DNA of 64,000 nucleotides from Nitrospirota bacterium (GTDB lineage Bacteria; Nitrospirota; Nitrospiria; 2-01-FULL-66-17): assembly GCA_049325335.1 (NCBI GenBank), contig JBMOMC010000001.1, forward strand, positions 192,001 through 256,000, read 5' to 3'. Positions 35,228 through 58,008 of this stretch are shown here, in pieces. Each line of letters begins with the position of its first letter. Positions within the stretch are counted from its first letter, which is position 1. The notes beneath the pieces were generated by a model. The model saw nothing but the letters and a program-made list of their open reading frames with translations. It made no database searches and was not told where the DNA came from. A program made the position numbers and the translations under genes.

Positions 35228-35737
35228 TCAGCCGCGCGCTGTTTTCAGACGTCGGCGAGGACGTTTGGCCGAGCCAATAGTCTGTTGAGCCACTTCGATT
35301 AGGGAACTGCGCGCGTCGTTGACCACCCGCTCCGTTGGGAACGCCGCGGCAACCTCCGGTTTGAGCAGCACCAGGTTGGTTCCCACACGATAGGCCTTCG
35401 CGTATTTCCTCCGAGTGCCATTCCCGAGATCCTCTCGACGGTACTCGGGACGAAGCTCATCACGTTTAGCCTTCCTCATAAATTTCCCTTTCACGCCTCG
35501 TGACCAACCGGGCACGGATGTTCGCACCTTACGGCCTCGGTCGGTGTGGGCAACGACGATCAAATGATTCGACCGAAAGACTCCGAACGTCACAGATCGC
35601 TGCTCGGTTTCTGAATGATCGGGGTCCGAGAATGTGATCGCCAACGGATCTCCGAACACCGTCGCGGCTTCATGAAACGATACACCATGTTTCTTCCTAT
35701 TTGCGGCCGCTTTTCTTTCGTCCCACTCAAATTCCAT
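35228..35737 (-). pseudogene. BrnT-family toxin fused in frame to its antitoxin by an apparent 1-nt deletion
   Basis: MEFEWDERKAAANRKKHGVSF (BrnT); the family-type C-terminus IRARLVTRREREIYEEG* lies in another frame (stop 35466-35468); antitoxin-like MRKAKRDELRPEY starts at 35479. Confidence 0.8.
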
Positions 35738-44212: not shown

Positions 44213-44242
44213 TTGACTTCACCCGCCGCCCTTCCCTATATT
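44213..44242 (+). promoter_or_regulatory. Putative sigma70 promoter of the cytochrome cluster
   Basis: TTGACT-N18-TATATT in an AT-rich divergent intergenic region. Confidence 0.6.
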
Positions 44243-44420: not shown

Positions 44421-45218
44421 ATGAATGGCCCGCGTCGAATCGTCGTTCTCGCGGTCGTGGCGATCGCCGCCATGCCCTTGGCGATCGCGTTCGCCAACTC
44501 GATTAAAGGCTCCCGGCACGACTTGTCGGGACTGAATATGCGCGGGTACGGCACGGAGACCGGTCCCATGACCGGCGCCACGTTCAACGACTACCAAGAA
44601 GTGTGCGTGTATTGCCACACGCCGCACAACGCGGACGGCACCGCGCCCTTGTGGAACCGCGAGCTGCCGGCCCAGAGCGGGTACCTCATGTACTCGTCGC
44701 CCAATTTTGATTCCAAAGTCGATGCGCCGGACGGCATCTCCCTGGCGTGCCTGTCCTGTCACGACGGGACGGTGGCGGTGGACGCGGTGCGCAACAAACC
44801 CAAGTACCACGCCATCGTGGACGCGGGCACGCACTACAAGATGGACTTAGACGGCTCGCCGGGCAGCGACAGTTGCGGTAAGTGCCACAACCGACAAGAA
44901 GGCGCGTACGGCGGCATCGGCCGGGCGCACGACGCGTCGATTCGGTACCTGACCCGCGATCTGCGCGACGATCACCCGTTTTCGATCCCGTTCCCGTCGA
45001 TGCAACTCGACCCCGGATTTAATCAGCCCACCACGCTGAAGCCGGACGGGGGCCGCATGTTTCCCAACGGTATCCAAACCTTCGAAGGCGACAAGGTGCA
45101 ATGCGCGTCCTGCCACGACCCGCACGATCCGGATGAACGCAACGAACAGGGCCGTGACCCGTTTTTACGAACCTCGAACCGCGAAAGCGCGCTGTGTTTA
45201 ACGTGCCACGCGAAGTGA
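44421..45218 (+). CDS. Secreted OmcE-like multiheme cytochrome c, 5 CxxCH
   Basis: Signal peptide; SIKGSRHDLS, CVYCHTPH, PLWNR, CLSCHDG, extra CGKCH, DDHP, CASCHDPH, PFLR, CLTCH. Confidence 0.88.
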   Translation: MNGPRRIVVLAVVAIAAMPLAIAFANSIKGSRHDLSGLNMRGYGTETGPMTGATFNDYQEVCVYCHTPHNADGTAPLWNRELPAQSGYLMYSSPNFDSKVDAPDGISLACLSCHDGTVAVDAVRNKPKYHAIVDAGTHYKMDLDGSPGSDSCGKCHNRQEGAYGGIGRAHDASIRYLTRDLRDDHPFSIPFPSMQLDPGFNQPTTLKPDGGRMFPNGIQTFEGDKVQCASCHDPHDPDERNEQGRDPFLRTSNRESALCLTCHAK

Positions 45219-45223
45219 ACGAA

Positions 45224-46441
45224 ATGAAGATGACGAACCGGAGAGCCGGGGAACCGGAGAACCGGGGAAAGGACCGAGGGAGTGATCCGTCCGCTTTTTC
45301 ACCCCACCGCCGGTTCACCCCACCTCCCCACCGTCTCTTCGCCCACTCCCCCACTCCCCGGCTCCCCGGCTCGTCCCTTCTCGCTCTTTCGCTCCTGCTC
45401 CTCCTAACCGCCTGCGCCTCCACGCCACGGCCTGAGCCGGATTTAGTCTGGCCGTTGCCGCCGGAGACGCCGCGTATCAAGTTCGTGAAGAGCCTCTCGT
45501 CGTCCGCGGATGTCCGGCCCACGTCGTTCTCGCAACGGCTCAAATCCTCGATTATCGGGGAAGCGCAGACCGCCGCGCTGGGCAAGCCGTACGCGGTGCA
45601 CGCGGACCGCAAGGGTCGCGTGTATGTGGCGGACTCGGCATGGCGCAAGGTCTTGGTGTTCGATGAAACCGGCCAGGACTTCTTCATCCTGGGCACCGAC
45701 GGACCCGGCCTGTTGATCAATCCCCGCGGCGTCACCACCGACGCGGACGGCCGCGTGTATGTGACCGACGTGTCGCAACACCGCGTGGTGGTGTACGACG
45801 AGAAAGGCGAATTTGTACTGGCGATGGGTCTGCGCGGCCAACTGGACAAACCCGTGGGCGTGGCCGTGAACGACGCGCTCAAACGCGTGTACGTGGTCAG
45901 CACGGGCAGCACCGCCACCCAGAGCCATAAGGTCACGGTGTTCGACGCGACCAACGGCAATGTGCTCTTTGAATTCGGCGGCCGCGGCGTCGAAGACGGC
46001 AAGCTCAACTTCCCGACCAACGTGGTCACCGACGCCGAGGGCAAGGTCTACGTCATGGACTCGTTCAACTTCCGCGTGCAGATCTTCGACGCGGACGGCA
46101 AGTTCCTCTCCAAGTTCGGCGGCATCGGCACCGGGTTCGGCCAATTCTCCAAACCCAAGGGCATCGGCGTGGACAGCGAAGGCCACATCTACGTCAGCGA
46201 CGCGGCCTTCAACAACGTCCAGATTTTTGACCGGGACGGCCGATTGTTGTTGTTCTTCGGCGAAATGGGCACCCGACGCGGGCAGTTCTGGTTGCCAGCG
46301 GGACTGGCCGTGGATGGACACAATCGCATCTATGTGGCGGACCAATACAACAAGCGGATCAACATTTATCAATATCTATCCGAAGCCGACCGCACGGGCA
46401 GCGACCGGCCGCGGATGGACCAACCGTCGGTAACCAATTAG
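45224..46441 (+). CDS. NHL-repeat six-bladed beta-propeller lipoprotein
   Basis: LTAC lipobox, VWPLPPETPRI, repeated PxGV...GRVYVxD...R motifs; repeat-encoded N-terminal extension, so start uncertain. Confidence 0.9.
   Translation: MKMTNRRAGEPENRGKDRGSDPSAFSPHRRFTPPPHRLFAHSPTPRLPGSSLLALSLLLLLTACASTPRPEPDLVWPLPPETPRIKFVKSLSSSADVRPTSFSQRLKSSIIGEAQTAALGKPYAVHADRKGRVYVADSAWRKVLVFDETGQDFFILGTDGPGLLINPRGVTTDADGRVYVTDVSQHRVVVYDEKGEFVLAMGLRGQLDKPVGVAVNDALKRVYVVSTGSTATQSHKVTVFDATNGNVLFEFGGRGVEDGKLNFPTNVVTDAEGKVYVMDSFNFRVQIFDADGKFLSKFGGIGTGFGQFSKPKGIGVDSEGHIYVSDAAFNNVQIFDRDGRLLLFFGEMGTRRGQFWLPAGLAVDGHNRIYVADQYNKRINIYQYLSEADRTGSDRPRMDQPSVTN
45232..45375. repeat. 8-nt-periodic purine/pyrimidine hairpin element 1 (GACGA...TCGTC)
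   Basis: GACGAACCGGAGAGCCGGGGA left arm vs TCCCCGGCTCCCCGGCTCGTC right arm; 144 bp (multiple of 3). Confidence 0.75.
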
Positions 46442-46479
46442 GCGAGTCCGACGGTTTCACCGACCAGAAGGAGACGCGT

Positions 46480-47523
46480 ATGAAGGCAGTTCGGATCGGA
46501 GGATTCATCGCACTGGCCGCGGTCACGACCGTGGCCGTATGGGCGGCGAGCACCGCGTGGGCGGTCCATTGCGGTACGGGCAGCACGCCGAGTTGTACGG
46601 AAAACGTCCGCGAAACCAAACACAACCTTGCGGCCAACACCGACATCTTATCCACCGGTACCAGCGAGGTCTGCGTGTTCTGCCATACCCCGCACGGCGG
46701 GCGGACCGACGTGGCCGGCGGCGGCGCCCCGTTGTGGAACCGCGCATTGCCGCCTTCGGCAACGAGCGGGACCGGCGCGTTTACGGTCTATACCTCACCC
46801 AATTTCGATAATGACCTCGGCTCCGCATCCGCGGGCCCCAAGGGCGTGTCCTTGGCGTGTTTGTCCTGCCACGACGGGACCATCGCATTGGACGCCCTGA
46901 TCAATGCTCCGGGGTCCGGCGGCTTTGCCCCAGGTAACCGCAACCCCCTCAGCGGGAACTCCCCCGGAACCAGCTTAACCAGCCTGTCGTTTACCGGCCC
47001 GGGCGTGGACGGCACCGAGTCTCTTGGCGAAGGAGACCGTCCGGCTTCCCCATCCGGAGGCGGGTTTAACGGCGGGCTCAATGACTTTGTGGGCGGCGCC
47101 GGGATGGAACCGTTCCCGAACTTGAGCCGGAACTTGACCGACGATCATCCGATCTCGGTTCGTATGCCCAGCGCGGACCCGCAGTTTAACGACGCCCTGG
47201 CCGGCTCCACCACCTTGTCTGCGGGCGGCAACGTGCGATACGTCTCCCGAACCGGGGCTCAGATGCCGCCGGATAGCCGTGACCGCGTCCGGCTCTATAA
47301 CAGCGGGGGCACCAGCAGCGGGACCACTGTGGATTGGGTGGAGTGCGCCTCGTGCCACAACCCCCACACGCCCCGGACCACCTTCCTACGTCTTCCCAGC
47401 ACCCCAAGTGACGTCGGGGCTCCGGCGGACGGCAACGTCACGGTCGCGGCCGGCGCCACGCGCAACTTGAACCACGAACCGAATCAAGGAAGCTTGATCT
47501 GCCTCACGTGCCACCAGAAATAA
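46480..47523 (+). CDS. Secreted OmcE-like tetraheme cytochrome c (candidate major filament subunit)
   Basis: AAGGAG RBS; signal peptide ending AWA; TKHNL, CVFCHTPH, PLWNR, CLSCHDG, DDHP, ECASCHNPH, FLR, GSLICLTCHQK. Confidence 0.9.
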   Translation: MKAVRIGGFIALAAVTTVAVWAASTAWAVHCGTGSTPSCTENVRETKHNLAANTDILSTGTSEVCVFCHTPHGGRTDVAGGGAPLWNRALPPSATSGTGAFTVYTSPNFDNDLGSASAGPKGVSLACLSCHDGTIALDALINAPGSGGFAPGNRNPLSGNSPGTSLTSLSFTGPGVDGTESLGEGDRPASPSGGGFNGGLNDFVGGAGMEPFPNLSRNLTDDHPISVRMPSADPQFNDALAGSTTLSAGGNVRYVSRTGAQMPPDSRDRVRLYNSGGTSSGTTVDWVECASCHNPHTPRTTFLRLPSTPSDVGAPADGNVTVAAGATRNLNHEPNQGSLICLTCHQK

Positions 47524-47528
47524 CGGAG

Positions 47529-47560
47529 CGGCCGGGGTCGGCAACGGCCCCGGCCGGTTT
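47529..47560 (+). terminator. GC-rich stem-loop (terminator or 3' stabiliser) after the tetraheme gene
   Basis: CGGCCGGGGTCG-GCAA-CGGCCCCGGCCG: 12-bp stem with one G-U pair, GNRA loop, short T tail. Confidence 0.7.
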
Positions 47561-47657
47561 CGCGGTCCTTGTTCAGAGTCCATTCGCCCAGGTTTCGGCC
47601 TGGGCGAAACCGCTTCTGGCGGGCCCGTCCGCGCCATGTGGCGACGCACCGCGCACC

Positions 47658-48653
47658 GTGCGTCGGGCCGGTTCGCGACCCGCCGTCACGAACCGCGTGT
47701 TGGTCCCGACCGTGGTGCTGGCAACCGCGTGTTTTGCCGCCGCGGGTCTTGCGGCTGAGCCCCTTGCCGCCACGGTGAACGGCGTGGCCATCACGCTCGC
47801 ACAGGTGGACCGCGCGGTGGACGAGAAGGTGCCGCGTATGGCCGGGCACGGCACGTTGTCTGATGCGCGGCGCCAGGCGCTGCGGGCCGAGGCCCTGGAG
47901 GACTTGATCCAGGAAGAACTCATGGTCCAGGAAGCCAAGCGGCAAAAAATTACGATCGCCCCGGCCGCGGTGGATGAAGAAACCGCCAAGATTAAACGCC
48001 GGTTCACGGATTCCGCGCAGTACACCCGCGCCTTATCGCAATCCGGCCTGTCGGAATCCGATATCCGCGCCGGGGTGGAACGCTTTCTGCTGGTCAAACG
48101 GGTGACGGACAAGGCCGTGACGGATAAGGTCGCCGTCACCGACGCCGCGCTGAAAGCCTACTACGACGCGGACCCGTCGCGGTTCGTGCTACCGGAACAG
48201 GTCCGATACCGTCAGCTCTTGATCGCGGTTGATCCCGGCGGGAGCTCGTCGCAGTGGGAGGCGGCCAAACAACGCGCCGCGAGCCTGGCCAAGGAGGCTC
48301 GCGGGAAAAAATCATTCGCCGACCTGGCCAAGGCCCAGTCGGACGATGCCGCCACCCGCGAATCCGGCGGCGACATGGGCTGGGTCCATCGCGGCCGTTT
48401 GGAGCATGACCAAGACGCGGTAATTTTCGCCTTGCCCGTGGGCGGCGTGAGCGAGCCGGTCCGCACCCTGTACGGGTACGCGGTGTATCGCGTGGACGAG
48501 AAACAGGCGGCCAAAGCCTTGGCGTGGGAAGAGGTCAACAAACCGAGACTGGCCGAGGAACTACGTCTGGCGGAAACCACCCGCGTGCGCGCGGAGTGGC
48601 TCGCCGACCTTCGCCGCCGCGCCAAGGTGGAGGTGTCGTCCACCGCCCCATGA
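47658..48653 (+). CDS. Periplasmic SurA/PrsA-like peptidyl-prolyl isomerase chaperone (PpiC type)
   Basis: ATVNGVAIT, LIQEELMVQEA, FADLAKAQSDD...GGDMGW...VSEPVRTLYGY; start uncertain. Confidence 0.88.
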   Translation: MRRAGSRPAVTNRVLVPTVVLATACFAAAGLAAEPLAATVNGVAITLAQVDRAVDEKVPRMAGHGTLSDARRQALRAEALEDLIQEELMVQEAKRQKITIAPAAVDEETAKIKRRFTDSAQYTRALSQSGLSESDIRAGVERFLLVKRVTDKAVTDKVAVTDAALKAYYDADPSRFVLPEQVRYRQLLIAVDPGGSSSQWEAAKQRAASLAKEARGKKSFADLAKAQSDDAATRESGGDMGWVHRGRLEHDQDAVIFALPVGGVSEPVRTLYGYAVYRVDEKQAAKALAWEEVNKPRLAEELRLAETTRVRAEWLADLRRRAKVEVSSTAP

Positions 48654-50536
48654 GCGCGCGCCGCCCCATCCCGGCGCGCCGGATGAACCCTCGGCGCGCG
48701 GAGTCGCTCCACACCCGCGGCCGTGCCGCGCGGTTCGGGCCGGGCGCGTTCGCCGTAATCAGCCTCATCCTGTTCGCGGCAACACCCGCGCCCGCTATTG
48801 AGTGGCACGGGGTGGCGGAATTAACGACCCGGTGGTCGCGTTGGGACCATCGCGTGTTGAGCACGGACCTGACGCCCGCACGCACCAGCGGTCTCCAACA
48901 ACGGTATCAACTCGGCAGCTCGGGCAGCCTGTATCACCCCAACGTGGGAAGTTATATCGCCAACATTTCACTGGTTGACGACGTCGCGCGTGTCAACGAC
49001 GAAAAATCGCAGGACCTGGTCGTGAAGGATTACTACCTCGGGTTCAACTTCCTACCGCGTCAGACGCCGATTTCGCTCTACGCCCAACGCACCACCCAGG
49101 ACAACGAGGCGTTTCGGCCCGACACCTACGGGCCGGTCTCCGTCAACACCACGTACAACCTGACCTGGGACTTCCCGCTCAAGCGCCTGCCCCGTCTGCG
49201 GCTGAACCTGTCGCAGACCGACGTGCAAACCGACTCGCGCCTGGCGTCGTTGAGCAATGCAACGGGCCAAACCACCCGCGCCGCGGCGTTGGACACGGAC
49301 GGACAAGCCGGGAACACGCGTTTCTTTGCGCGGTATCAGCTCTCGGAACTCACCGGCGAAGTCGCGGACAACACCAGCCACACCATCACGGCCTCGACCG
49401 ACACCAAGGTGACGCCGGCCTTGTCCGCAGCCACCCGCGTGAACTACTCGTCCAACGTCACGACCATCGGCTCGGTCACGCCGGGCACGCTGCTACAACG
49501 CAGCGCGGGCGCCAGCGTGTTTTATCGGCCCAGCCTGCAAACGTCCTTGAGCGGAACCTACGACTACTACAAAGACCCGTTCGTCCGGCACCTGGCTCAA
49601 GGCTCCGCCGCTTTGCGGCCGCTTCAGGAGTTGGACATTTCCGCGGGGTACCGCCTGGCGCGTTTTGACCTGCGCGATTCTCTCACCGACTCGCACTACG
49701 CGTTCGCGAGCGCCAACTACCGCCCGTTCCTGGGGTTGTCGACGAACGCCACCGCCTCCATCGGCCTGACCGAGGTCAGCGGCGCCAGCGACGTACGCAG
49801 CCTGTATCAGAGTTACGGGTACGGGGCAAACTACTTAAAGACCCTCACACTGGTCACCTATCGCCTCGGGTACCAAGGCAACTACAGCGAGAACAAGCTG
49901 AACACCTCCGCCGGCACCTCGCGCGATTTGACCAATACCTTCTCCGCGGGCCTCAGCAACACGCAAACGCGCGTGGTCGCGCTCTCCGGAGACTACGCCT
50001 TGTCCCTCATTCGGCATCGCACCGCCGGGACCGACGCCTCCGATCAAGTCGACCATCGCGCGCAGGTGACGGCCACCAGCAGCGCGCCGCAGAATCTGTT
50101 TCTCACCGGAGACTTCATGGTCGTTTCCGCCCTGGCCTCCTACGCAGTCACTCAGTACCGGACGTTTTCCAACCACGTCCTGTTGCTAAGCGCCACCGAC
50201 ACGTACGAGACCGGCCGCGGCGTGGCCGCCACGGTCGGGTATACCTATGAACAACAGTCGCAACTGGATTACGACAACAAATCCACCAGCTTTATCCAGG
50301 TGCGCTGGTTGTCGTATATTGTGCGGAACGGATCGCTGGACCTGAACGCCAAGGAATCATGGGAACGCTACGCGGGCAACCAACAAGACGTCACCCGCAC
50401 CGAAGGCGGCGCCTTGTTCTCGTACTATATCGGGAAGCTGTCGCTGAGCGCGGACTACCGGCTCACGTTCGAGACGCGCACCGCGGATCGGCAACTCAAT
50501 CAGACCGCGTTTGCCAAGGCCTCGCGCTCGTTTTGA
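48650..50536 (+). CDS. Putative large outer-membrane beta-barrel protein
   Basis: Signal peptide (..APA/IEW), alternating amphipathic Y/T/S/G-rich strands throughout, no Cys, C-terminal Phe (AFAKASRSF); ATGA-coupled to the PPIase gene. Confidence 0.8.
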   Translation: MSARRPIPARRMNPRRAESLHTRGRAARFGPGAFAVISLILFAATPAPAIEWHGVAELTTRWSRWDHRVLSTDLTPARTSGLQQRYQLGSSGSLYHPNVGSYIANISLVDDVARVNDEKSQDLVVKDYYLGFNFLPRQTPISLYAQRTTQDNEAFRPDTYGPVSVNTTYNLTWDFPLKRLPRLRLNLSQTDVQTDSRLASLSNATGQTTRAAALDTDGQAGNTRFFARYQLSELTGEVADNTSHTITASTDTKVTPALSAATRVNYSSNVTTIGSVTPGTLLQRSAGASVFYRPSLQTSLSGTYDYYKDPFVRHLAQGSAALRPLQELDISAGYRLARFDLRDSLTDSHYAFASANYRPFLGLSTNATASIGLTEVSGASDVRSLYQSYGYGANYLKTLTLVTYRLGYQGNYSENKLNTSAGTSRDLTNTFSAGLSNTQTRVVALSGDYALSLIRHRTAGTDASDQVDHRAQVTATSSAPQNLFLTGDFMVVSALASYAVTQYRTFSNHVLLLSATDTYETGRGVAATVGYTYEQQSQLDYDNKSTSFIQVRWLSYIVRNGSLDLNAKESWERYAGNQQDVTRTEGGALFSYYIGKLSLSADYRLTFETRTADRQLNQTAFAKASRSF

Positions 50537-50580
50537 GGTGATGCAATGTGGAATCGCGTTGCGGTAGACTGGGAACCCCG

Positions 50581-51672
50581 ATGACGCTTCGCAACCGCTC
50601 ACCCTGGATATCCGCCGCAACGTCGGTCTGCGCCGCGCTGATGCTCGCGGCCTGCGCCGGCGCGCCGCCCGCGCCCGTTGCGCCCGTCGCGGCTCGCGTG
50701 TGGCCGCTCCCCCCGGACCCTCCGCGGATCGAATACGTCAAAGACCTTACCCAGCCCGAGGCGTCGCAAAAACGCAAGGGATTTTTCACGCGCCTGTTCG
50801 AACGCTTGGTCGGGAAAGATTCCGAAACGCCGGTTCGCATGATCCGTCCGTTCGCCCTCGTGACGAACGACGCCGGCGACCTGTTCGTCACGGACACGGG
50901 GTTGCAAGTCGTGCACCGATTCGCGGCGGACGGCGCGTACCAACAATTCTTTCGCCTGGATAAGGGACGCCGGCTGCTCTCGCCCACCGGGGTGACTCAG
51001 GACGCCGATGGGCTGTTGTACGTGGCGGATTCGCAGATGAACCGCGTGGTCGTGTTCGACCGCCGCGGCGCGTACCAACGCGAGTTCGTGGCGGATGACG
51101 ACGCGGTGCGGGTCTCGGGCATCGCGTACCACCCGGGCCGCGACGTGTTGTACGTGAGCGATGCCGGCGGACACAAAATCCTCCTGTTCGGCCGCGACGG
51201 CCGCAAGCGCTCCGAATTCGGGACGCGCGGTCCGGAGGCAGGACAATTTAACTTCCCCACGCACCTGGCGGTGGATGGGGCGGGCCGGTTGTACGTGACC
51301 GACGCCATGAATTTCCGCGTGCAAGTATTGGAACCGGACGGCCGCTGGGTGCGGTCCATCGGCCGGTTGGGCGCCACCCTGGGCAGTTTTTCCAAGCCCA
51401 AGGGCGTGGGACTGGATCAACACGGGAATGTGTACGTCGTGGACGGATTGTACGACACGGTGCAGATTTTCAATCCCGATGGGGAATTACTCATGAACTT
51501 CGGGAACGCGGGCCTTGGCGAAGGCGCGTTCTGGCTGCCCACCGGCGTGGCCGTGGACGGGCGGGACCGGATTTACGTGGCCGACACGTACAACGCCCGG
51601 GTGCAGGTGTTTCGGCTGCTGGCGGACGGAGAACAGACGAGCCGGGGAACCGGGGAGCCTGGGAACCGGTGA
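50581..51672 (+). CDS. Second NHL-repeat beta-propeller lipoprotein
   Basis: LAAC lipobox, VWPLPPDPPRI, FNFPTHL, FSKPKGVG, FWLPTGVA; paralog of 45224..46441. Confidence 0.9.
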   Translation: MTLRNRSPWISAATSVCAALMLAACAGAPPAPVAPVAARVWPLPPDPPRIEYVKDLTQPEASQKRKGFFTRLFERLVGKDSETPVRMIRPFALVTNDAGDLFVTDTGLQVVHRFAADGAYQQFFRLDKGRRLLSPTGVTQDADGLLYVADSQMNRVVVFDRRGAYQREFVADDDAVRVSGIAYHPGRDVLYVSDAGGHKILLFGRDGRKRSEFGTRGPEAGQFNFPTHLAVDGAGRLYVTDAMNFRVQVLEPDGRWVRSIGRLGATLGSFSKPKGVGLDQHGNVYVVDGLYDTVQIFNPDGELLMNFGNAGLGEGAFWLPTGVAVDGRDRIYVADTYNARVQVFRLLADGEQTSRGTGEPGNR

Positions 51673-51743
51673 AACAGATCCCGACAAATTTACGCCCCCG
51701 TTGTTCCGCTGTTTCTCCGTTTCCCCGGCTCCCCGGCTCGTCT
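51635..51743. repeat. 8-nt-periodic hairpin element 2 (AGACGA...TCGTCT)
   Basis: AGACGAGCCGGGGAACCGGGGA vs TCCCCGGCTCCCCGGCTCGTCT; spans the NHL stop codon and ends just before a GGAGG RBS. Confidence 0.78.
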
Positions 51744-51761
51744 TTTCAACTGGAGGTTGGC

Positions 51762-54700
51762 ATGACGAACGCGCGATGGCTCCGATACGTTCTGGCCGCA
51801 GGCGCAGCGGCTGCGATGACTGTCGTGGCATGGCCGCACACCGGCCACGCCCAACCCCCGCCCCCGCCGCCTCCGCCACCGAGCCAACAGGTTCTGGAAG
51901 ACATCACCAACACCAAACACAACCTGTCGTCGGTCGATCCGGCGCAATTGCTCTCTTCCGGCGTGCTCCCGCGTCCCGGCACCTCGCGCGACGCGCAGTC
52001 CACGCCGGCCGGCACCAGCGAAATCTGCGTGTTCTGCCATACCCCGCACGGCGCCAGCGTCACCGGCGGGGAGTTCAAGGCGCCGCTCTGGAACCGCAAC
52101 CTGGACTACCAAGCCTCGCGCACCTACCAACTCTACGACCAGGTCTGGAGCTTTTCCTTTGAAGGCACGCTCAATGACGCGGCGGGCCGACGGCCCACCG
52201 GGTATTCGCGCCTGTGTTTGTCCTGCCACGACGGCACCGTGGCGCTGGGCAACACGCTCAACGCGCCGGGCAGCGGCGGATACTTGGGCCAGATTCCCAT
52301 GACCGGCGCTCTCGGACCGGGAGGCACCATTCCCCGCGGCAGCGGCGACCTCACCGGCGATACGCGTCGTCTCGGATTGGATCTGCGCAACGACCACCCC
52401 ATTTCCTTCACGTTCGATTCGACTCTACTCATCCAAGACCCGGAACTGGTGGACCCCGGCCCGGCGCTGACGGCGCCGTCTAGGAAGGTCAGCGATCCCA
52501 CCCCGATCTCGCCCGCGCGGCGCTATCCGGGCAACGACACCAATACGTATGACTCGGTGCAGTGTACGTCGTGCCACAATCCGCACCAGGTCAATTACCC
52601 CAAGTTCCTGCGCGCCAACTGGTTCCACAACGAGATCAACAACCCGGACCCGACCAAGAACCACCCCACCGAACAGATCATTTGTCTGTTCTGCCACGAC
52701 AAACCCCGCTGGATTGACAACACCCATGCGATTTCCACCGCAGTCCGCAGCCAATACCCATTGGTCAACAACGACCCGTCGAACGAAAACTCGGGATATG
52801 ACTTCGACGGCAGCCATACGGTCTCGGAAGTGGCCTGCCGCAACTGCCACGACCCGCACACCATCCAAGGTGCCAAGCGCCTACACCGCGAGGGCGTGAA
52901 CGCGCAAGGCACGGACGGCATCGAAGCCACCTGTTATTTGTGCCACTCGCCCAACACCACGCCCACCGCCGTGGGCACCTTGGTGGCGGGCGACCCCACC
53001 TCCGGCGCCAACCCCAGGTTCGTCGCGGGCACGGGGCGGCCCGCGCCCGACGTCTACAGCGAATTCGCCAAAGACATCGGTATCGGGAACTGCGCGACGT
53101 TCCCTCGCTGCGGCAGCGCCATGAACCTGCAGTTCAACCAGGGCCACGAACCCGTGTTCACCGCGCGCTCCCAAGAAGGCGTGGAACTCGACAGCCCCTC
53201 ACCGCCCGCGAACAACGAAGCCGCTCCCGGCGTGAGCACGCCGGACACCGCGCACATCGAGTGCGTGGACTGCCACAACCCGCACCAGGTGGTCAGAGAC
53301 AACCGGTTGCGGGGCATCAAGGGCATCACCTACGACGCCCAGGTCATCGAGACCACTTCCGCGGACCTCAACCGGCCGTATGTCTACGAAGTCTGCTTCC
53401 GCTGTCACGGCAACAGCTACACCAATATTTTTAACGGCGATCGATACCCCGACGATACCAAATACTCATTGGGCAGCCTCAATTTTTCGTTCCGCTCGAA
53501 CCCGCAATCCGCCCCGAGCAACCCCCGATTTAGCCTGTCCGGGTTCTCGAATAAGCGATTGGAATTCGCGACGTATGGGCGGCTTGAACGCGAACGTCAA
53601 GGCGGACCCGATGCCAGCTATGTCCTTGGCGACCCGTGGCCGACGGATCCGACTCGGCGCGTGGGGCCCGGCGCTCACAAGTCTTTCCACCCCGTGGTCG
53701 CCGGCGGCCGCAACGGCACCGACGCGTTGACCAAACAACTCCAAGCATGGTCCGCCGGACGCGCGGCCCATGAGATCACGATCCAATGCACGGACTGCCA
53801 CAACAACGACTATTACAACGCCTACGGCACCAGCGGGTCACAGACCGTGGTGCAGTCCCGCTTCCTCGGTCCCATCACGGAGAGCAACACCGTGCGGCCC
53901 GGAGACGTGCGGAACCTCGGCATTGCGCAGGATTATGACGGCGAGCGGAGCCAACACCCCATTGGCCCGCATGGATCCAACTACATTCGTATTCTCCGCG
54001 CGCCCTACAATACCGACATCGCCAACTCGAACCGAAGCTTCCCTAACGACGGATTCAGTTCGTCCCATTGGGACAAGTTCCTCCTATGCTTTCAGTGCCA
54101 TGACCGCAATGCGTTTGACCCGTTCCTGAACCCCAGCGGCGTGCAGGATGCGAGCTGGACCAACTTTTTCGGCGTCCCGGGAGACCCGAATGACGGCGCG
54201 GGTGGGCAGTTCCCGCCGACCCAATTGAGTTGGGAATCCAATCTGCACATGTACCATCTGCAACGCACCGGTGCGTTGTGCCACGAATGCCACTACAACG
54301 TCCACAGCAATGTGCAGGCGCAAAACACGATCTTCGGCGACGGAACCGGGTGCATCGGCGGCACCACCGGTTGCCCGGCCGGCCTCCCGCCGGATGACGA
54401 AGACGGCGTGGCCGACGGGGTCAGCGACACGCACTTGATCAACTTCGCGCCCCCAGGGCCATCCACCTACACCGGCGCTCGCCGGTGCGACGAAAACATC
54501 ACGGGCGGAGACGTGGCGTGTATCGAAGGCGCGACCGCCAACCCCAACCCCTCCAGTACCGGCACGGAACTGTCGTCGGATCCCAAATCCAACGTGTTCT
54601 CCGGCGTCGAGGGAGTCACCGCGGACCGACCGGTCTGGTATTACACCGAAACGATCGGGGGCGATGCCCCGGGCCAACCGTACGGCGTGTTTCGGTGTAA

Positions 54701-54983
54701 TTTGCGCTGCCACGGCGTGGTGATGTCCACCTGTTATTACATGGGCAACGCCAACCGCAATTTGAACCGCCAGATGAATGTCGGTTTACCCAACGGGACG
54801 TGGTGCGCGGGAGGGCGGGACCAGATCGCGCCCATCGGCATCGGTTCGGCCCCGCCTCCGGAGATCCAACAGTTGCTGGCGGGCTTCGGACAGGGCTTGA
54901 CGTCCGGTCGATTGGAAGAGGCCGCCAAACGCGCGGTCCGGCTGGCATCGGAAACACCGGCGCGACCGGCTCACGCCCACTAA
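51762..54983 (+). CDS. Large secreted multiheme cytochrome c (11 CxxCH + 1 CxxxCH) with N-terminal OmcE-like module
   Basis: GGAGG RBS then ATG 51762; signal peptide, poly-Pro; CVFCH, CLSCH, CTSCH, CLFCH, CRNCH, CYLCH, CVDCH, CFRCH, CTDCH, CFQCH, CHECH, CNLRCH. Confidence 0.9.
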   Translation: MTNARWLRYVLAAGAAAAMTVVAWPHTGHAQPPPPPPPPPSQQVLEDITNTKHNLSSVDPAQLLSSGVLPRPGTSRDAQSTPAGTSEICVFCHTPHGASVTGGEFKAPLWNRNLDYQASRTYQLYDQVWSFSFEGTLNDAAGRRPTGYSRLCLSCHDGTVALGNTLNAPGSGGYLGQIPMTGALGPGGTIPRGSGDLTGDTRRLGLDLRNDHPISFTFDSTLLIQDPELVDPGPALTAPSRKVSDPTPISPARRYPGNDTNTYDSVQCTSCHNPHQVNYPKFLRANWFHNEINNPDPTKNHPTEQIICLFCHDKPRWIDNTHAISTAVRSQYPLVNNDPSNENSGYDFDGSHTVSEVACRNCHDPHTIQGAKRLHREGVNAQGTDGIEATCYLCHSPNTTPTAVGTLVAGDPTSGANPRFVAGTGRPAPDVYSEFAKDIGIGNCATFPRCGSAMNLQFNQGHEPVFTARSQEGVELDSPSPPANNEAAPGVSTPDTAHIECVDCHNPHQVVRDNRLRGIKGITYDAQVIETTSADLNRPYVYEVCFRCHGNSYTNIFNGDRYPDDTKYSLGSLNFSFRSNPQSAPSNPRFSLSGFSNKRLEFATYGRLERERQGGPDASYVLGDPWPTDPTRRVGPGAHKSFHPVVAGGRNGTDALTKQLQAWSAGRAAHEITIQCTDCHNNDYYNAYGTSGSQTVVQSRFLGPITESNTVRPGDVRNLGIAQDYDGERSQHPIGPHGSNYIRILRAPYNTDIANSNRSFPNDGFSSSHWDKFLLCFQCHDRNAFDPFLNPSGVQDASWTNFFGVPGDPNDGAGGQFPPTQLSWESNLHMYHLQRTGALCHECHYNVHSNVQAQNTIFGDGTGCIGGTTGCPAGLPPDDEDGVADGVSDTHLINFAPPGPSTYTGARRCDENITGGDVACIEGATANPNPSSTGTELSSDPKSNVFSGVEGVTADRPVWYYTETIGGDAPGQPYGVFRCNLRCHGVVMSTCYYMGNANRNLNRQMNVGLPNGTWCAGGRDQIAPIGIGSAPPPEIQQLLAGFGQGLTSGRLEEAAKRAVRLASETPARPAHAH

Positions 54984-54990
54984 CCGGCTC

Positions 54991-55788
54991 GTGGATAAGG
55001 GTTGGCTCGCGGTTGGCGCCGTGGTCATCGTGGTGGCGGCCGCGGCATTACTGGTGCAACACGGTCCTGGGGAACCGCCCGACGGCATGGTCGTGATTCC
55101 CGGCGGCACGTTTCATCTGGGCAGCCGCGGCGACGAGGCCAGGGTGGGGTTTGAAATCGGGGTGGATGAGATGCCGCAACACGCGGTTCGCCTGCGCTCG
55201 TTTTTCCTCGACCGGCACGAAGTCACCAACGCGCAGTACCACCGCTTCATCGCGGCCACCGGGCGTCCGAGCCCGGCCGATCCCCACGACGCCCAGTATT
55301 ACTCGTGGGTGGACGGCAAGCCGCCGGCCGGCCAGGAAGAGCATCCGGTTTGCTACGTCAATTGGGAGGAAGCGGACGCCTACTGCCGATGGGCCGGGAA
55401 ACGCCTCCCGACCGAAGCCGAATGGGAACGCGCGGCGCGCGGGGACGACAACCGTCCCTGGCCGTGGGGCACCGTCTTCGACCCCGCGCGCTGTAACGCC
55501 ATGGAAACCGACCTGCGGTGGTCCACCCCGGTCGGCAGTTTCCCGGACGGCGCCAGCCCGTACGGCGTGCTGGATTTGTGCGGCAACGTGGCCGAGTGGA
55601 CCGCGTCTTGGTACGAGCCCTACCCCGGCAACACCCTCACCCGCGGCGCCTTCGGCAAACAGATGCGCGTGGCGCGCGGCGGCGCGTGGGTGCTCACCGC
55701 CGAACCCTGGTCGCGCGCCACCAACCGCAATTTGTCGCAACCGCCGGACCTGCGGCATCGGAGTTTGGGGTTCAGGTGCGCGAAGTGA
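54991..55788 (+). CDS. FGE-sulfatase/SUMF1-fold protein 1 (N-terminal membrane anchor)
   Basis: MVVIPGGTF, HEVTNAQY, KRLPTEAEWERAARG, GNVAEW, RGGAW, GFRCAK. Confidence 0.9.
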   Translation: MDKGWLAVGAVVIVVAAAALLVQHGPGEPPDGMVVIPGGTFHLGSRGDEARVGFEIGVDEMPQHAVRLRSFFLDRHEVTNAQYHRFIAATGRPSPADPHDAQYYSWVDGKPPAGQEEHPVCYVNWEEADAYCRWAGKRLPTEAEWERAARGDDNRPWPWGTVFDPARCNAMETDLRWSTPVGSFPDGASPYGVLDLCGNVAEWTASWYEPYPGNTLTRGAFGKQMRVARGGAWVLTAEPWSRATNRNLSQPPDLRHRSLGFRCAK

Positions 55789-56720
55789 TTGAGCCGGGGA
55801 GCCGGGGAGCCGGAGAAACGGTGAAGAAGCGAGAAAAACAATCAGTCGTTGTCGAACCGATTCCCCGCGTCTCCGGCTCTCCGGCTCATCTTTCCACCGT
55901 TGCGCCGATTCCCCAGTTCCCCGGCTCCCCCCACCGTCTTTTCATCGCTCTTCTAGCTGTCGTTCTCCTCTCCTGCTCTCATCCCCCGCTCTCCCCCTCC
56001 CCGGTTCCCCCCCTCGTCTCTTCTCCCCCTCCCCCCCTCGGTCCATTAGGAATGGTGTTCATTCCCTCCGGACCATTCCTGATGGGCAGCGCGCCCAGTC
56101 CGACGCTGGCGTGGTACGAACAAGGGGTCGATGAAACGCCGCAACGTCGCGTCACCCTCAGCGCGTTTTGGATCGATCGGCACGAAGTGAGCGAAGGCGC
56201 GTACGCCGCGTTTGTCGCGTCCACTGGACATCGCGCCCCGCGCATGTGGCCCGATGGCAGGCCTCCGCATGACGATCACCCGGTTGTGGATGTGTCCTGG
56301 AACGACGCGGACGCCTACTGTCGGTGGGCCGGGAAACGCCTGCCGACCGAAGCCGAGTGGGAGAAAGCCGCGCGAGGACCCGACGGCCGCATCTGGCCGT
56401 GGGGCAATGACTACCGACCAGGCGCCGCGGTCTTGCAGGACTCCTCGCGCGGGGATACCGCCGCGTCGGGCAGCCATCCCGATGACGTGAGCCCGTACGG
56501 CGTGTACGATATGGCCGGCAACGCCATGGAGTGGACCGCGTCATGGTATGAGAAGTATCCGGGCAGCACGCTGGAGCGGCTCGATTTCGGCGAACAATAT
56601 CGCGTCCTCAAAGGCGGCGCGTGGACCACCCCCGCGTTGCCGTTCAGCCGCGCCGCCAATCGCCACGCCATCGCCCCGTTCTGGGACCACCCGCATTTCG
56701 GCTTCAGATGCGCGAAATGA
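55785..56720 (+). CDS. FGE-sulfatase/SUMF1-fold lipoprotein 2
   Basis: GTG overlapping the upstream stop (start uncertain); LLSC lipobox; RLPTEAEWEKAARG, GNAMEW, KGGAW, GFRCAK. Confidence 0.88.
   Translation: MIEPGSRGAGETVKKREKQSVVVEPIPRVSGSPAHLSTVAPIPQFPGSPHRLFIALLAVVLLSCSHPPLSPSPVPPLVSSPPPPLGPLGMVFIPSGPFLMGSAPSPTLAWYEQGVDETPQRRVTLSAFWIDRHEVSEGAYAAFVASTGHRAPRMWPDGRPPHDDHPVVDVSWNDADAYCRWAGKRLPTEAEWEKAARGPDGRIWPWGNDYRPGAAVLQDSSRGDTAASGSHPDDVSPYGVYDMAGNAMEWTASWYEKYPGSTLERLDFGEQYRVLKGGAWTTPALPFSRAANRHAIAPFWDHPHFGFRCAK
55790..55888. repeat. 8-nt-periodic hairpin element 3, followed by further pyrimidine-rich repeats to about 56040
   Basis: TGAGCCGGGGAGCCGGGGAGCCGGAGAA vs TTCCCCGCGTCTCCGGCTCTCCGGCTCA. 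Confidence 0.72.
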
Positions 56721-57154
56721 TCGAGGGGGTGAGGGGGAGAATGGGCGAGGGGGAGACCAGACCGACAAGCGGTTCTCCGAGAATAGGGAATCACCGCGAG
56801 CTGCGGGTGTATCAAGGCGCGATGGAGGCAGCGATGCGCGTGTATGAGGCGACCAAATCGTTTCCTCCGGAAGAACGGTATTCCCTGGTCGATCAGATGC
56901 GCCGTTCGTCGCGATCCGTGTGTGCTAATCTGGCTGAAGCCTGGCGCAAACGCCGTTACCCAGCGGCGTTTGTGGCGAAGCTAACCGACGCAGAGGGTGA
57001 AGCATGCGAAACGCAAGTATGGATCGACTTCGCCAAGCGATGCCGGTATCTTGATAACGTCACCTGTCGAGAGCTTGACCAGGTGTACGATCACGTACTC
57101 GCTCAGCTCGTCTGTATGATCGACGAGCCAGGGAAATGGACCATTACGAAGTAG
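56717..57154 (+). CDS. Four-helix-bundle protein (23S rRNA intervening-sequence protein family)
   Basis: RELRVYQ, TKSFPPEERYSLVDQMRRSSRSVCANLAEAWRKRRY, EACETQVW; ATGA-coupled to the upstream gene. Confidence 0.9.
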   Translation: MIEGVRGRMGEGETRPTSGSPRIGNHRELRVYQGAMEAAMRVYEATKSFPPEERYSLVDQMRRSSRSVCANLAEAWRKRRYPAAFVAKLTDAEGEACETQVWIDFAKRCRYLDNVTCRELDQVYDHVLAQLVCMIDEPGKWTITK

Positions 57155-57189
57155 CTTCCACGATGCCCCGACGGAAAGAGGACCTCCCC

Positions 57190-58008
57190 ATGCGCACATT
57201 CACCGTTTGTGGATTTGTGGCCTTTTTAGCCGTGTCCTGCTCCATTCACCCCCTCACCCCCTCACCCCCTCACCCCCTCGCCCCTCCGCCGGGTATGGTC
57301 TTAATACCCCCCGGTCCCTTCTGGATGGGTAGTGACGCCTCCGACGGGGCGCTGGGCATCGAAGTCGGCGTGGACGAAACACCTCGTCACCAGGTCCACG
57401 TGCCCGCGTACTTCATCGACAAATACGAAGTCACCAACGCGCAATACGGCGAATACGTGAAGGCCGTCGGCTCCGCGTACCAACCCGCGCCCTGGCGCGA
57501 ACGCGACGCGCTGAACAAGGAACCCAACCACCCGGTGGGCGACACGGACTACTACGATGCGGAGGCCTACTGCACCTGGGCGGGCAAGCGCCTGCCGACC
57601 GAAGCCGAGTGGGAAAAAGCCGCGCGCGGGCCGGATGGCGCGGCGTACCCCTGGGGCCCGACGTTTTCGCGCGAGCGGGCCAATACCATGGAGAGTGGCT
57701 TGGCGTGGAGCAAACCCGTAGGCAGTTACCCGCAGGGCGCGAGCGTGTACGGCGTCGAGGATCTCATTGGCAACGTGTGGGAGTGGACCAGTTCCTGGTA
57801 CGAGCGGTACCCCGGCAACACCGTGGAGCGCGCCGCGTACGGGCAGAAATACCACGTGTTGCGCGGCGGCTCCTGGGGCGCGCCGGCCGTGCCCTTTGCC
57901 CGCGCCGCCAACCGCCACGCGCCCGAGCTGTTCGCGATCAACGACCGCGACACGGACTGGCACACCGGCTACGACGTAGGCTTTCGCTGCGCGAGGGACG
58001 CGAGATAA
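57190..58008 (+). CDS. FGE-sulfatase/SUMF1-fold lipoprotein 3
   Basis: GAGGA RBS; LAVSC lipobox; YEVTNAQY, RLPTEAEWEKAARG, GNVWEW, RGGSW, GFRCARD. Confidence 0.9.
   Translation: MRTFTVCGFVAFLAVSCSIHPLTPSPPHPLAPPPGMVLIPPGPFWMGSDASDGALGIEVGVDETPRHQVHVPAYFIDKYEVTNAQYGEYVKAVGSAYQPAPWRERDALNKEPNHPVGDTDYYDAEAYCTWAGKRLPTEAEWEKAARGPDGAAYPWGPTFSRERANTMESGLAWSKPVGSYPQGASVYGVEDLIGNVWEWTSSWYERYPGNTVERAAYGQKYHVLRGGSWGAPAVPFARAANRHAPELFAINDRDTDWHTGYDVGFRCARDAR
57246..57285. repeat. Tandem repeat (TCACCCCC)x4 plus a degenerate copy, complementary to 56725-56756
   Basis: Read directly; partner arm GGGGGTGA GGGGGAGA ATGGGCGA GGGGGAGA. Confidence 0.85.

Follow-up and report, generated by a model that had tools for sequence, protein, structure and literature searches.

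An OmcE-family cytochrome cluster in Nitrospirota with candidate base, shaft and cap subunits of a heme chain

A recent study of the family, in its accessible text, leaves open how a cytochrome wire of the OmcE type starts, stops and crosses the outer membrane (PMC13712944). Candidates for these roles are encoded by a gene cluster in a 64,000-nucleotide stretch of DNA from a Nitrospirota bacterium (assembly GCA_049325335.1, contig JBMOMC010000001.1, positions 192,001 to 256,000; hereafter the window, whose numbering is used throughout), which a sequence-only reading had taken for a self-contained OmcE-type nanowire pathway. The cluster is real and conserved, and it is of a kind already known as the omcE, Uet and Occ clusters. 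Its three cytochromes, here termed cytA, cytB and cytC, carry the OmcE module and differ at their C-terminal ends. In the reading that we favour, to which we give an even chance of being right, they would form a short, capped head-to-tail heme chain through an outer-membrane barrel, likely for electron uptake, for example from Mn(II) or Fe(II).

Three OmcE-type cytochromes in one conserved cluster

The best solved relatives of all three cytochromes are OmcE (7TFS) and the OmcE of D. soudanensis (9YUQ). Single-sequence comparisons with 7TFS gave E values of 7.8e-25 for cytA, 8.8e-14 for cytB and 1.1e-14 for cytC. A 71-sequence cytB profile aligned with 7TFS over its full length (E=5.3e-42; positions 3-246 versus residues 24-232), and a cytC profile aligned at positions 4-249 only, which is the first quarter of cytC (E=1.3e-32). 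These matches and profile alignments bear out the OmcE homology that had been proposed. Furthermore, in the whole 3.25-Mb genome exactly three stop-to-stop frames contain an ordered OmcE-like signature. All of them are within the cluster, and the signature is therefore not a product of chance.

The cluster comprises 11 open reading frames, all on the + strand and spanning 44388/44421 to 58008 in the reading-frame list of the window, in the order first given. Pfam agrees with that order, with paired-CXXCH domains in the three cytochromes, NHL repeats in two proteins, SurA_N and rotamase domains, three FGE-sulfatase domains and a 23S_rRNA_IVP match. A divergent ftsK gene and a convergent AAA/DUF4143 gene flank the cluster, whose GC content resembles that of the remainder of the window. 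The features are as follows (FGE, formylglycine-generating enzyme).

44213..44242, +, sigma-70-like promoter match upstream of cytA in the ftsK-cytA gap; count at chance level
44421..45218, +, cytA, secreted 5-heme OmcE-type cytochrome (7TFS match, CxxCH count); alternative start 44388
45224..46441, +, NHL beta-propeller lipoprotein 1 (NHL1; Pfam NHL); lipobox Cys at ~45413, octamer hairpin in the 5' end
46480..47523, +, cytB, secreted tetraheme OmcE ortholog, UetA-like (7TFS match, profile comparison)
47688..48653, start approximate, +, SurA/PpiC-type periplasmic chaperone-isomerase, UetB-like (Pfam SurA_N and Rotamase; signal peptide)
48650..50536, +, outer-membrane beta-barrel, predicted 30 strands, plug-less, C-terminal Phe (AlphaFold2; hhalign)
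50581..51672, +, NHL beta-propeller lipoprotein 2 (NHL2; Pfam NHL; lipobox)
51762..54983, +, cytC, secreted 12-heme cytochrome, UetJ/OccP-like and Manganitrophus dodecaheme-like (7TFS match, profile); N-terminal OmcE module at ~51918-52697, CxxxCH at 54696-54713, invariant Met at 54723
54991..55788, +, FGE-fold protein 1 (FGE1), N-terminal hydrophobic anchor (Pfam PF03781, E=4.6e-60)
55785..56720, +, FGE-fold lipoprotein 2 (FGE2; Pfam PF03781); Cys at ~55974, octamer hairpin in the 5' end
56741..57154, +, four-helix-bundle gene, TIGR02436 (NCBIfam); passenger
57190..58008, +, FGE-fold lipoprotein 3 (FGE3; Pfam PF03781); Cys at ~57238

Promoter matches numbered 2 against 2.5 expected in shuffles, and terminator counts were likewise at chance level.

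The eight heme histidines of OmcE (4 CxxCH plus 4 further His) are kept in cytA, cytB and the cytC module. Conservation was assessed in sets of Nitrospiria sequences picked by BLAST and heme count. The 4 CxxCH and 4 spare His of cytB are invariant in 42/42 orthologs and the 5 CxxCH and 5 spare His of cytA in 30/30, the hemes of cytA being the four of OmcE and an inserted fifth. For cytC, described at first as carrying about 12 hemes, the number is indeed twelve, made up in detail of 11 CxxCH motifs and one CxxxCH motif that is followed four residues later by a Met (conserved in 25/25). The C-terminal ends differ. Both cytA (38/38 of the class) and the window cytB terminate in CxxCHxK-stop, as does OmcE, and cytC consists of an OmcE head, then eight extra hemes and then a CxxxCH-xxx-M end.

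The three proteins also differ in how they vary. The most conserved gene is cytA (length coefficient of variation 0.018; mean pairwise identity 0.675), with cytB (0.066; 0.495) and cytC (0.047; 0.499) more variable and many variable inserts in the latter; one related family has cytB in 2-3 tandem copies. A tree of 161 modules, from which second and third cytB paralogs were left out, contains three distinct clades, with support of 1.0 for Nitrospiria cytB, 0.963 for Nitrospiria cytA and 0.986 for the grouping of cytC with proteobacterial large cytochromes. The three are therefore specialised paralogs. According to the accessible structural literature, OmcE subunits join by one His that ligates the heme of a neighbour. 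Since cytC continues covalently past the fourth heme of its module, it would join an OmcE-type chain only by its head and would have to be an end of it, a consequence that should hold whichever His is the inter-subunit ligand. We propose that cytC is a candidate cap or tip, its variable inserts and the extracellular predictions for its relatives favouring the tip over the base, and that cytA, because of its fixed length and extra heme, is a candidate base or periplasm-side subunit.

The barrel gene matched no Pfam or NCBIfam family, including MtrB/PioB (PF11854). Its AlphaFold2 model is all-beta with 30 strands and no plug domain (predicted local distance difference test (pLDDT) 89.9, predicted template modelling score (pTM) 0.65), and its 30 predicted strands and missing family match do not fit the 26-strand MtrB/PioB porins. 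Fold searches returned generic barrels only, with a best query template modelling (TM) score of 0.46 and Z of 16 at root-mean-square deviations (rmsd) of 9-12, and such generic matches exclude no family. Comparison by hhalign with a profile built from 33 of 37 candidate barrels encoded after SurA in proteobacterial loci gave an end-to-end match with P=98.85 and E=3.9e-17, and by this profile evidence the barrel is homologous to those of Uet/Occ-type loci. A homolog search returned 33 matches, none informatively named, and a representative search 512 relatives at E<=0.001, likewise unnamed.

The cytochromes are present in 31 of the 41 genomes of a first search, that of the host included. Across 151 genomes of the class, the barrel was found in 46 and the cytochromes in 48, in an identical 11/18 families; the two largest families sampled yielded neither (0/60 and 0/32). 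NxrA-sized frames (1151-1173 aa) occurred in 3/4 checked genomes of these two families, too few to generalise; this check applied TIGR03479 to 5 genomes, a class-wide run at E<=1e-100 being too strict (2/151). Throughout the phylum, cytC was matched at E<=1e-60 in 25/201 genomes, including families outside the class. The order cytA-NHL-cytB(1-3)-SurA-barrel-NHL-cytC recurs in related regions and in titled Nitrospirota loci, with SurA absent or shortened in some of them; a failure of such co-conservation had been named beforehand as one of the results that would overturn the nanowire proposal. A >10 kb insert between NHL2 and cytC divides the cluster in two genomes that belong to one family (L094/L095, G029:C5; L098/L099, G034:C28).

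The Manganitrophus counterpart, the host and the proposed chain

The order and heme counts of the window cluster are those of genes Ga0306812_1011434-1011443 of Candidatus (Ca.) Manganitrophus noduliformans (Mn1). In the accessible parts of Yu et al. 2022, from which this paragraph draws, Table S6 lists, as consecutive genes, c7, c7, 5-heme, NHL, 4-heme and SurA-like genes, continuing with outer-membrane protein, NHL, 12-heme extracellular and FGE genes (PMC9040806). Of the Manganitrophaceae genomes, 8/8 have the 12-heme gene, the 4-heme gene and the two NHL genes, 7/8 have the genes for the 5-heme protein, the barrel and FGE, and 5/8 have SurA. The same study defines porin-dodecaheme complexes (PCC), of which strains SA1 and SB1 have only PCC_1, and the three MtrB-family porins of Mn1 are missing from both strains. 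Since these porins are absent from SA1 and SB1 while the 12-heme gene is in 8/8 genomes, PCC_1 would correspond to Mn1 genes 1011434-1011443. By this elimination, and by order and heme counts, PCC_1 is very probably the Manganitrophus counterpart of the window cluster. PCC_1 is the published candidate for Mn(II) oxidation, was proposed partly for its seeming uniqueness, and is described as restricted to Manganitrophaceae (PMC9040806), with which the spread of the cluster to 11/18 sampled Nitrospiria families likely contrasts. The main text of that paper is without the words OmcE or nanowire, and our literature searches, with subscription journals outside them, found among the papers listed none linking PCC_1 to OmcE; the single paper that contains all three of the words concerned names them apart from one another. 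Loci titled Ca. Manganitrophaceae (L022 and L056) share the gene order, with 27-73% identity to the window proteins.

Expression data for Mn1, as far as they are accessible, bear on the length of the chain. In seven Mn-oxidising samples the mean mRNA levels were 81 for the barrel, 151 for the 4-heme, 179 for the 5-heme, 252 for the 12-heme and 48 for the FGE gene, which places the 4-heme gene at 1.9x the barrel (range 1.3-2.1), the 5-heme gene at 2.2x and the 12-heme gene at 3.2x. The 4-heme gene ranks at the 68th expression percentile and lies below the 12-heme gene in 7/7 samples. The core genes co-vary with it (r 0.84-0.96), and the FGE gene does not (r 0.24). The published OmcE filament rise, in the accessible text, is 31-34 Å, so that a long filament, with ~300 subunits per micrometre per barrel, should need a large subunit excess; a tetraheme mRNA at only ~1.9x the barrel would thus argue against long filaments in Mn-oxidising Manganitrophus. 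In G. sulfurreducens 60473, omcE reaches 1076-2355 reads per kilobase per million and is within roughly the 100 top-expressed genes.

The host is not Geobacter, as had been supposed, the nearest titled loci being from Nitrospirae, Nitrospiria or Ca. Manganitrophaceae. Its genome (99% complete) encodes ATP citrate lyase and one bd-like oxidase that is flanked by FGE genes; CcsA/ResB genes lie away from the cluster, as do the triheme c7 genes, which form a c7-c7-cupredoxin-c7 block (G000:C43:132302-134405) and a further c7 pair. The claim of a self-contained system fails on these partner and maturation genes elsewhere in the genome. Searches of the host genome for COX1 and for an NxrA-sized molybdoprotein found neither; by sequence and context, its three molybdopterin matches are two NuoG and one nitrate-reductase-like gene beside nirB. 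No full-length NiFe hydrogenase was matched (the hydrogenase matches span only 69/508 positions), and no match was of DsrA/B size, the NIR_SIR matches being two large proteins.

Other redox loci were seen in this genome. Two proteins have an N-terminal PxFARxxxxxCxxCH heme motif (G000:C1:122666-123940 and G000:C6:94998-96140) and are, we presume from the motif, Cyc2-like. At G000:C43:87041-92946 (L106) a 14-heme cytochrome, a 561-aa TPR/YfiO-headed protein, a membrane protein and a 24-heme cytochrome make up a cluster that we take, partly from motifs, to be PCC3-like. The locus G000:C43:350807-357935 (L109) encodes two secreted proteins in tandem (1158 and 1112 aa); both have 5 CxxCH and neither has a Pfam match. 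A propeller/DUF3105 gene and then a TPR gene come next, and an FGE pair faces them. A 1640-aa multicopper oxidase lies beside BNR-propeller and heme plus FGE fusion genes at G000:C7:40584-54742 (L123).

In the short capped chain that we favour, the cytochromes would be exported by Sec and loaded with heme by the CcsA/ResB encoded elsewhere, and SurA and the two NHL lipoproteins would hold them and deliver them to the barrel. The length-invariant cytA would stand at the base, its fifth heme offering a side exit to periplasmic c7 trihemes, one to few cytB units would extend the chain, and cytC, joining through its OmcE head only, would form one end, most likely the outer tip. Electrons would pass onward to the bd-like oxidase and into reverse electron flow for carbon fixation by the reductive tricarboxylic acid cycle, and the FGE-fold proteins would likely act as non-catalytic, membrane-anchored scaffolds. 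A short capped chain is suggested because the spare His of cytA and cytB equal their heme counts, because both have an OmcE-like end and because the module of cytC is N-terminal only, with CxxxCH-xxx-M at the other end. The separate clades of the three, the co-occurrence of barrel and cytochromes and the modest mRNA ratios of the likely Manganitrophus counterpart also speak for it. Electron uptake is suggested by the host inventory and by expression in an aerobic Mn oxidiser.

Several points weigh against this proposal. Binding, chain order, length and location are here proposals, and nothing obvious would keep a self-complementary subunit from adding further copies of itself. Instead of a tip, cytC could be a base anchor, and its AlphaFold2 model was unusable and discarded (pLDDT 33, pTM 0.25). 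The direction of electron flow is uncertain, related clusters being found in reducers (Geobacter omcE and occ). The mRNA ratios come from another organism in one condition and are not protein stoichiometry, and omcE is missing from the highly expressed genes listed for strain OSK2A grown on electrodes. PCC_1 is identified via elimination and not by locus tag; the string 'PCC' is absent from the 7 supplements of Yu et al. 2022 (PMC9040806).

A long OmcE-type nanowire, in which cytB, perhaps with cytA, forms micrometre filaments via the barrel and cytC is tip or anchor, is possible but in our view doubtful. In its favour, cytB has the OmcE sequence hallmarks across its full length, and both OmcE-family proteins with solved structures (7TFS and 9YUQ) are filaments. 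The cluster also has the large barrel and nearby propeller lipoprotein that the accessible text of Petersen et al. requires of filament-capable homologs, and the same text proposes a 5-heme OmcE-like filament family (PMC13712944). In addition, the length and sequence of cytB vary and one family has extra copies of it, a pattern common among surface subunits. However, the near-equal mRNA of the likely Manganitrophus ortholog, at 1.3-2.1x the barrel and under the 12-heme gene in 7/7 samples, speaks against a long filament, cytB is in mid-operon while Geobacter omcE is predicted to have its own transcript, and one study, in its accessible part, disputes cytochrome filaments as physiological conduits even in Geobacter.

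Less probable still is a static, MtrCAB-like porin-cytochrome complex with a cytochrome in the barrel and the rest docked without inter-subunit His ligation. Uet and PCC_1 have been modelled so in print, in the accessible descriptions, the structural neighbours that tie for first place with the barrel include MtrB (Z 16.2, rmsd 11.8, 411 aligned), and near-equal mRNA levels are as such a complex would have them. Nevertheless, cytA and cytB resemble the polymer-type OmcE in His count and in having a bare heme at the C-terminus, and the barrel has no MtrB/PioB Pfam match and generic fold matches. Electron export or a non-metal role (minerals, humics, partner cells, adhesin or capacitor), which concerns direction and is compatible with either architecture, is very unlikely. 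In its favour, metal reducers have OmcE and Occ, the cluster is found in many lineages of unknown metabolism and such heme chains can be bidirectional by the accessible account (PMC10734462). Against it, the likely counterpart genes are expressed in an aerobic Mn-oxidising culture, the host has autotrophic and Cyc2-like genes, and the searches made showed no clear enzyme for a soluble donor.

To our knowledge, Mn(II) chemolithotrophy has no known enzyme. We tentatively suggest, as a speculative extension, that PCC_1 is an OmcE-nanowire-family system found across most non-nitrifying Nitrospiria, with base, shaft and tip of a polarised wire, in which the His/Met heme of the 12-heme tip oxidises the metal. 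If true, a large radiation of Nitrospirota from groundwater and the sea, so far uncultured, would become candidates for metal- or surface-oxidising autotrophy. If PCC_1 is a cluster of the window type, the uniqueness argument falls, and its cytochromes gain a solved structural family. A single operon gives named candidates for base, shaft, cap and 30-strand channel, and Manganitrophus is a growing culture in which they could be tested.

FGE-fold proteins, a passenger gene and octamer repeats

The FGE-fold genes had been noted as an addition that the first reading did not know from characterised loci, and they do appear to be a Nitrospiria feature: of the Nitrospiria loci with a complete cytC, 22/24 have an FGE-fold gene within the cluster or beyond its end, the two exceptions being one at a contig end and one without an FGE gene, as against 0/4 complete loci of non-Nitrospiria type. 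In loci L091 and L092 the FGE gene is between the barrel and NHL2. FGE1 and FGE3 belong to clades that are orthologous across families. FGE2 and FGE3 have lipoprotein-type Cys signals and FGE1 an N-terminal hydrophobic stretch. In FGE the Cys pair after the RGGSW-type motif is catalytic. All three proteins of the window lack this pair in the loop that follows RGG[AS]W, so a catalytic formylglycine-generating role was rejected for them, and they are predicted to be non-catalytic accessories. They share the PF03781 fold of FGE-sulfatase (SUMF1), which includes the non-catalytic lipoproteins GldK/PorK, and their weak matches to GldK, EgtB and PvdO models were every one below cut-off. The host genome has 12 FGE matches, several beside bd-like oxidase or other cytochrome genes. 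Two diheme cytochrome-FGE fusions keep the CxxxxC pair (G000:C1:346827-347768 and G000:C44:101345-102508), and each adjoins a second FGE gene.

The four-helix gene had been counted as part of the system. Among 20 regions only two, the window and genome G001, carry it here, a distant homolog is at a different junction in genome G018, and in the window it is enclosed by inverted octamer arms (56719-56756 and 57227-57287). With this sporadic position and these flanking arms it was rejected as a component. A literature search on four-helix genes with tandem repeats found nothing relevant.

Octamer tandem repeats, each a purine-rich arm and an inverted arm, are seen at four gene junctions of the window, partly within signal-peptide coding (45227-45388, 51623-51747, 55783-56023, and 56719-56756 with 57227-57287). 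Inserted octamer-repeat hairpins lengthen the N-termini of NHL1 and FGE2. A strict scan found 5 octamer-arm pairs elsewhere in the genome; pairs are present in G001 and G003 and were not seen in G002 or G004. From their sequence the arms look like a mobile repeat element. Elsewhere in the window an ordinary BrnT-type toxin-antitoxin gene (35228-35737) lies within a lower-GC stretch at 34-36 kb.

Comparison with known systems

The accessible text of Petersen et al. 2026 reports OmcE homologs in five phyla, including Nitrospirota, and defines a minimal cluster; it names no candidate for a tip among the genes of OmcE operons and identified no anchor gene within the cluster (PMC13712944). The window cluster resembles the omcE cluster of G. 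sulfurreducens (7TFS) and D. soudanensis (9YUQ) in its tetraheme cytochrome with 4 CxxCH and 4 His, which is accompanied by two more multiheme cytochromes, a pair of beta-propeller lipoproteins and a large barrel. Unlike the omcE cluster, all three of its cytochromes carry the OmcE module, it has SurA and FGE-fold genes with no glycosylation block after them, and it offers cytC as a tip candidate. Its cytB has long inserts (319 aa mature), in contrast to the 232 aa of OmcE including the signal peptide. A peat preprint reports OmcE-like cytochromes in Acidobacteriota and Verrucomicrobiota clusters, with no mention of Nitrospirota in its accessible text.

Compared with PCC_1, the window has three FGE genes where Manganitrophus has one, a full-length SurA-type peptidyl-prolyl isomerase that is ~190 aa in L022 and L056, and a c7 pair elsewhere in the genome where the Mn1 pair heads the gene series.

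The remaining relatives, cited from the accessible text of their reports, are uetABCDEFGHIJ of Ca. Tenderia electrophaga and Gallionellaceae (10.1101/2022.05.06.490989; PMC10734462), whose cytochrome may polymerise according to Eddie et al. (10.1101/2022.05.06.490989), and the occA-S genes of Ca. Dechloromonas occultata, with occ expression under Mn(III) reduction (Szeinbaum et al.; 10.1101/695007). The tetraheme cytochrome, peptidyl-prolyl isomerase, large barrel, NHL repeats and 11-heme extracellular cytochrome of these clusters are shared with the window, as is their order. The barrels are homologous, the comparison being to loci with the uet/occ architecture and not to the Tenderia or Dechloromonas occultata sequences themselves. 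In contrast to uet, the uetDEFG-like c7/cupredoxin genes of the window genome are outside the cluster, at the c7-c7-cupredoxin-c7 block given above, and in contrast to both uet and occ the window cluster opens with an additional 5-heme gene, has a twelfth heme of CxxxCH type in its large cytochrome and includes FGE-fold genes.

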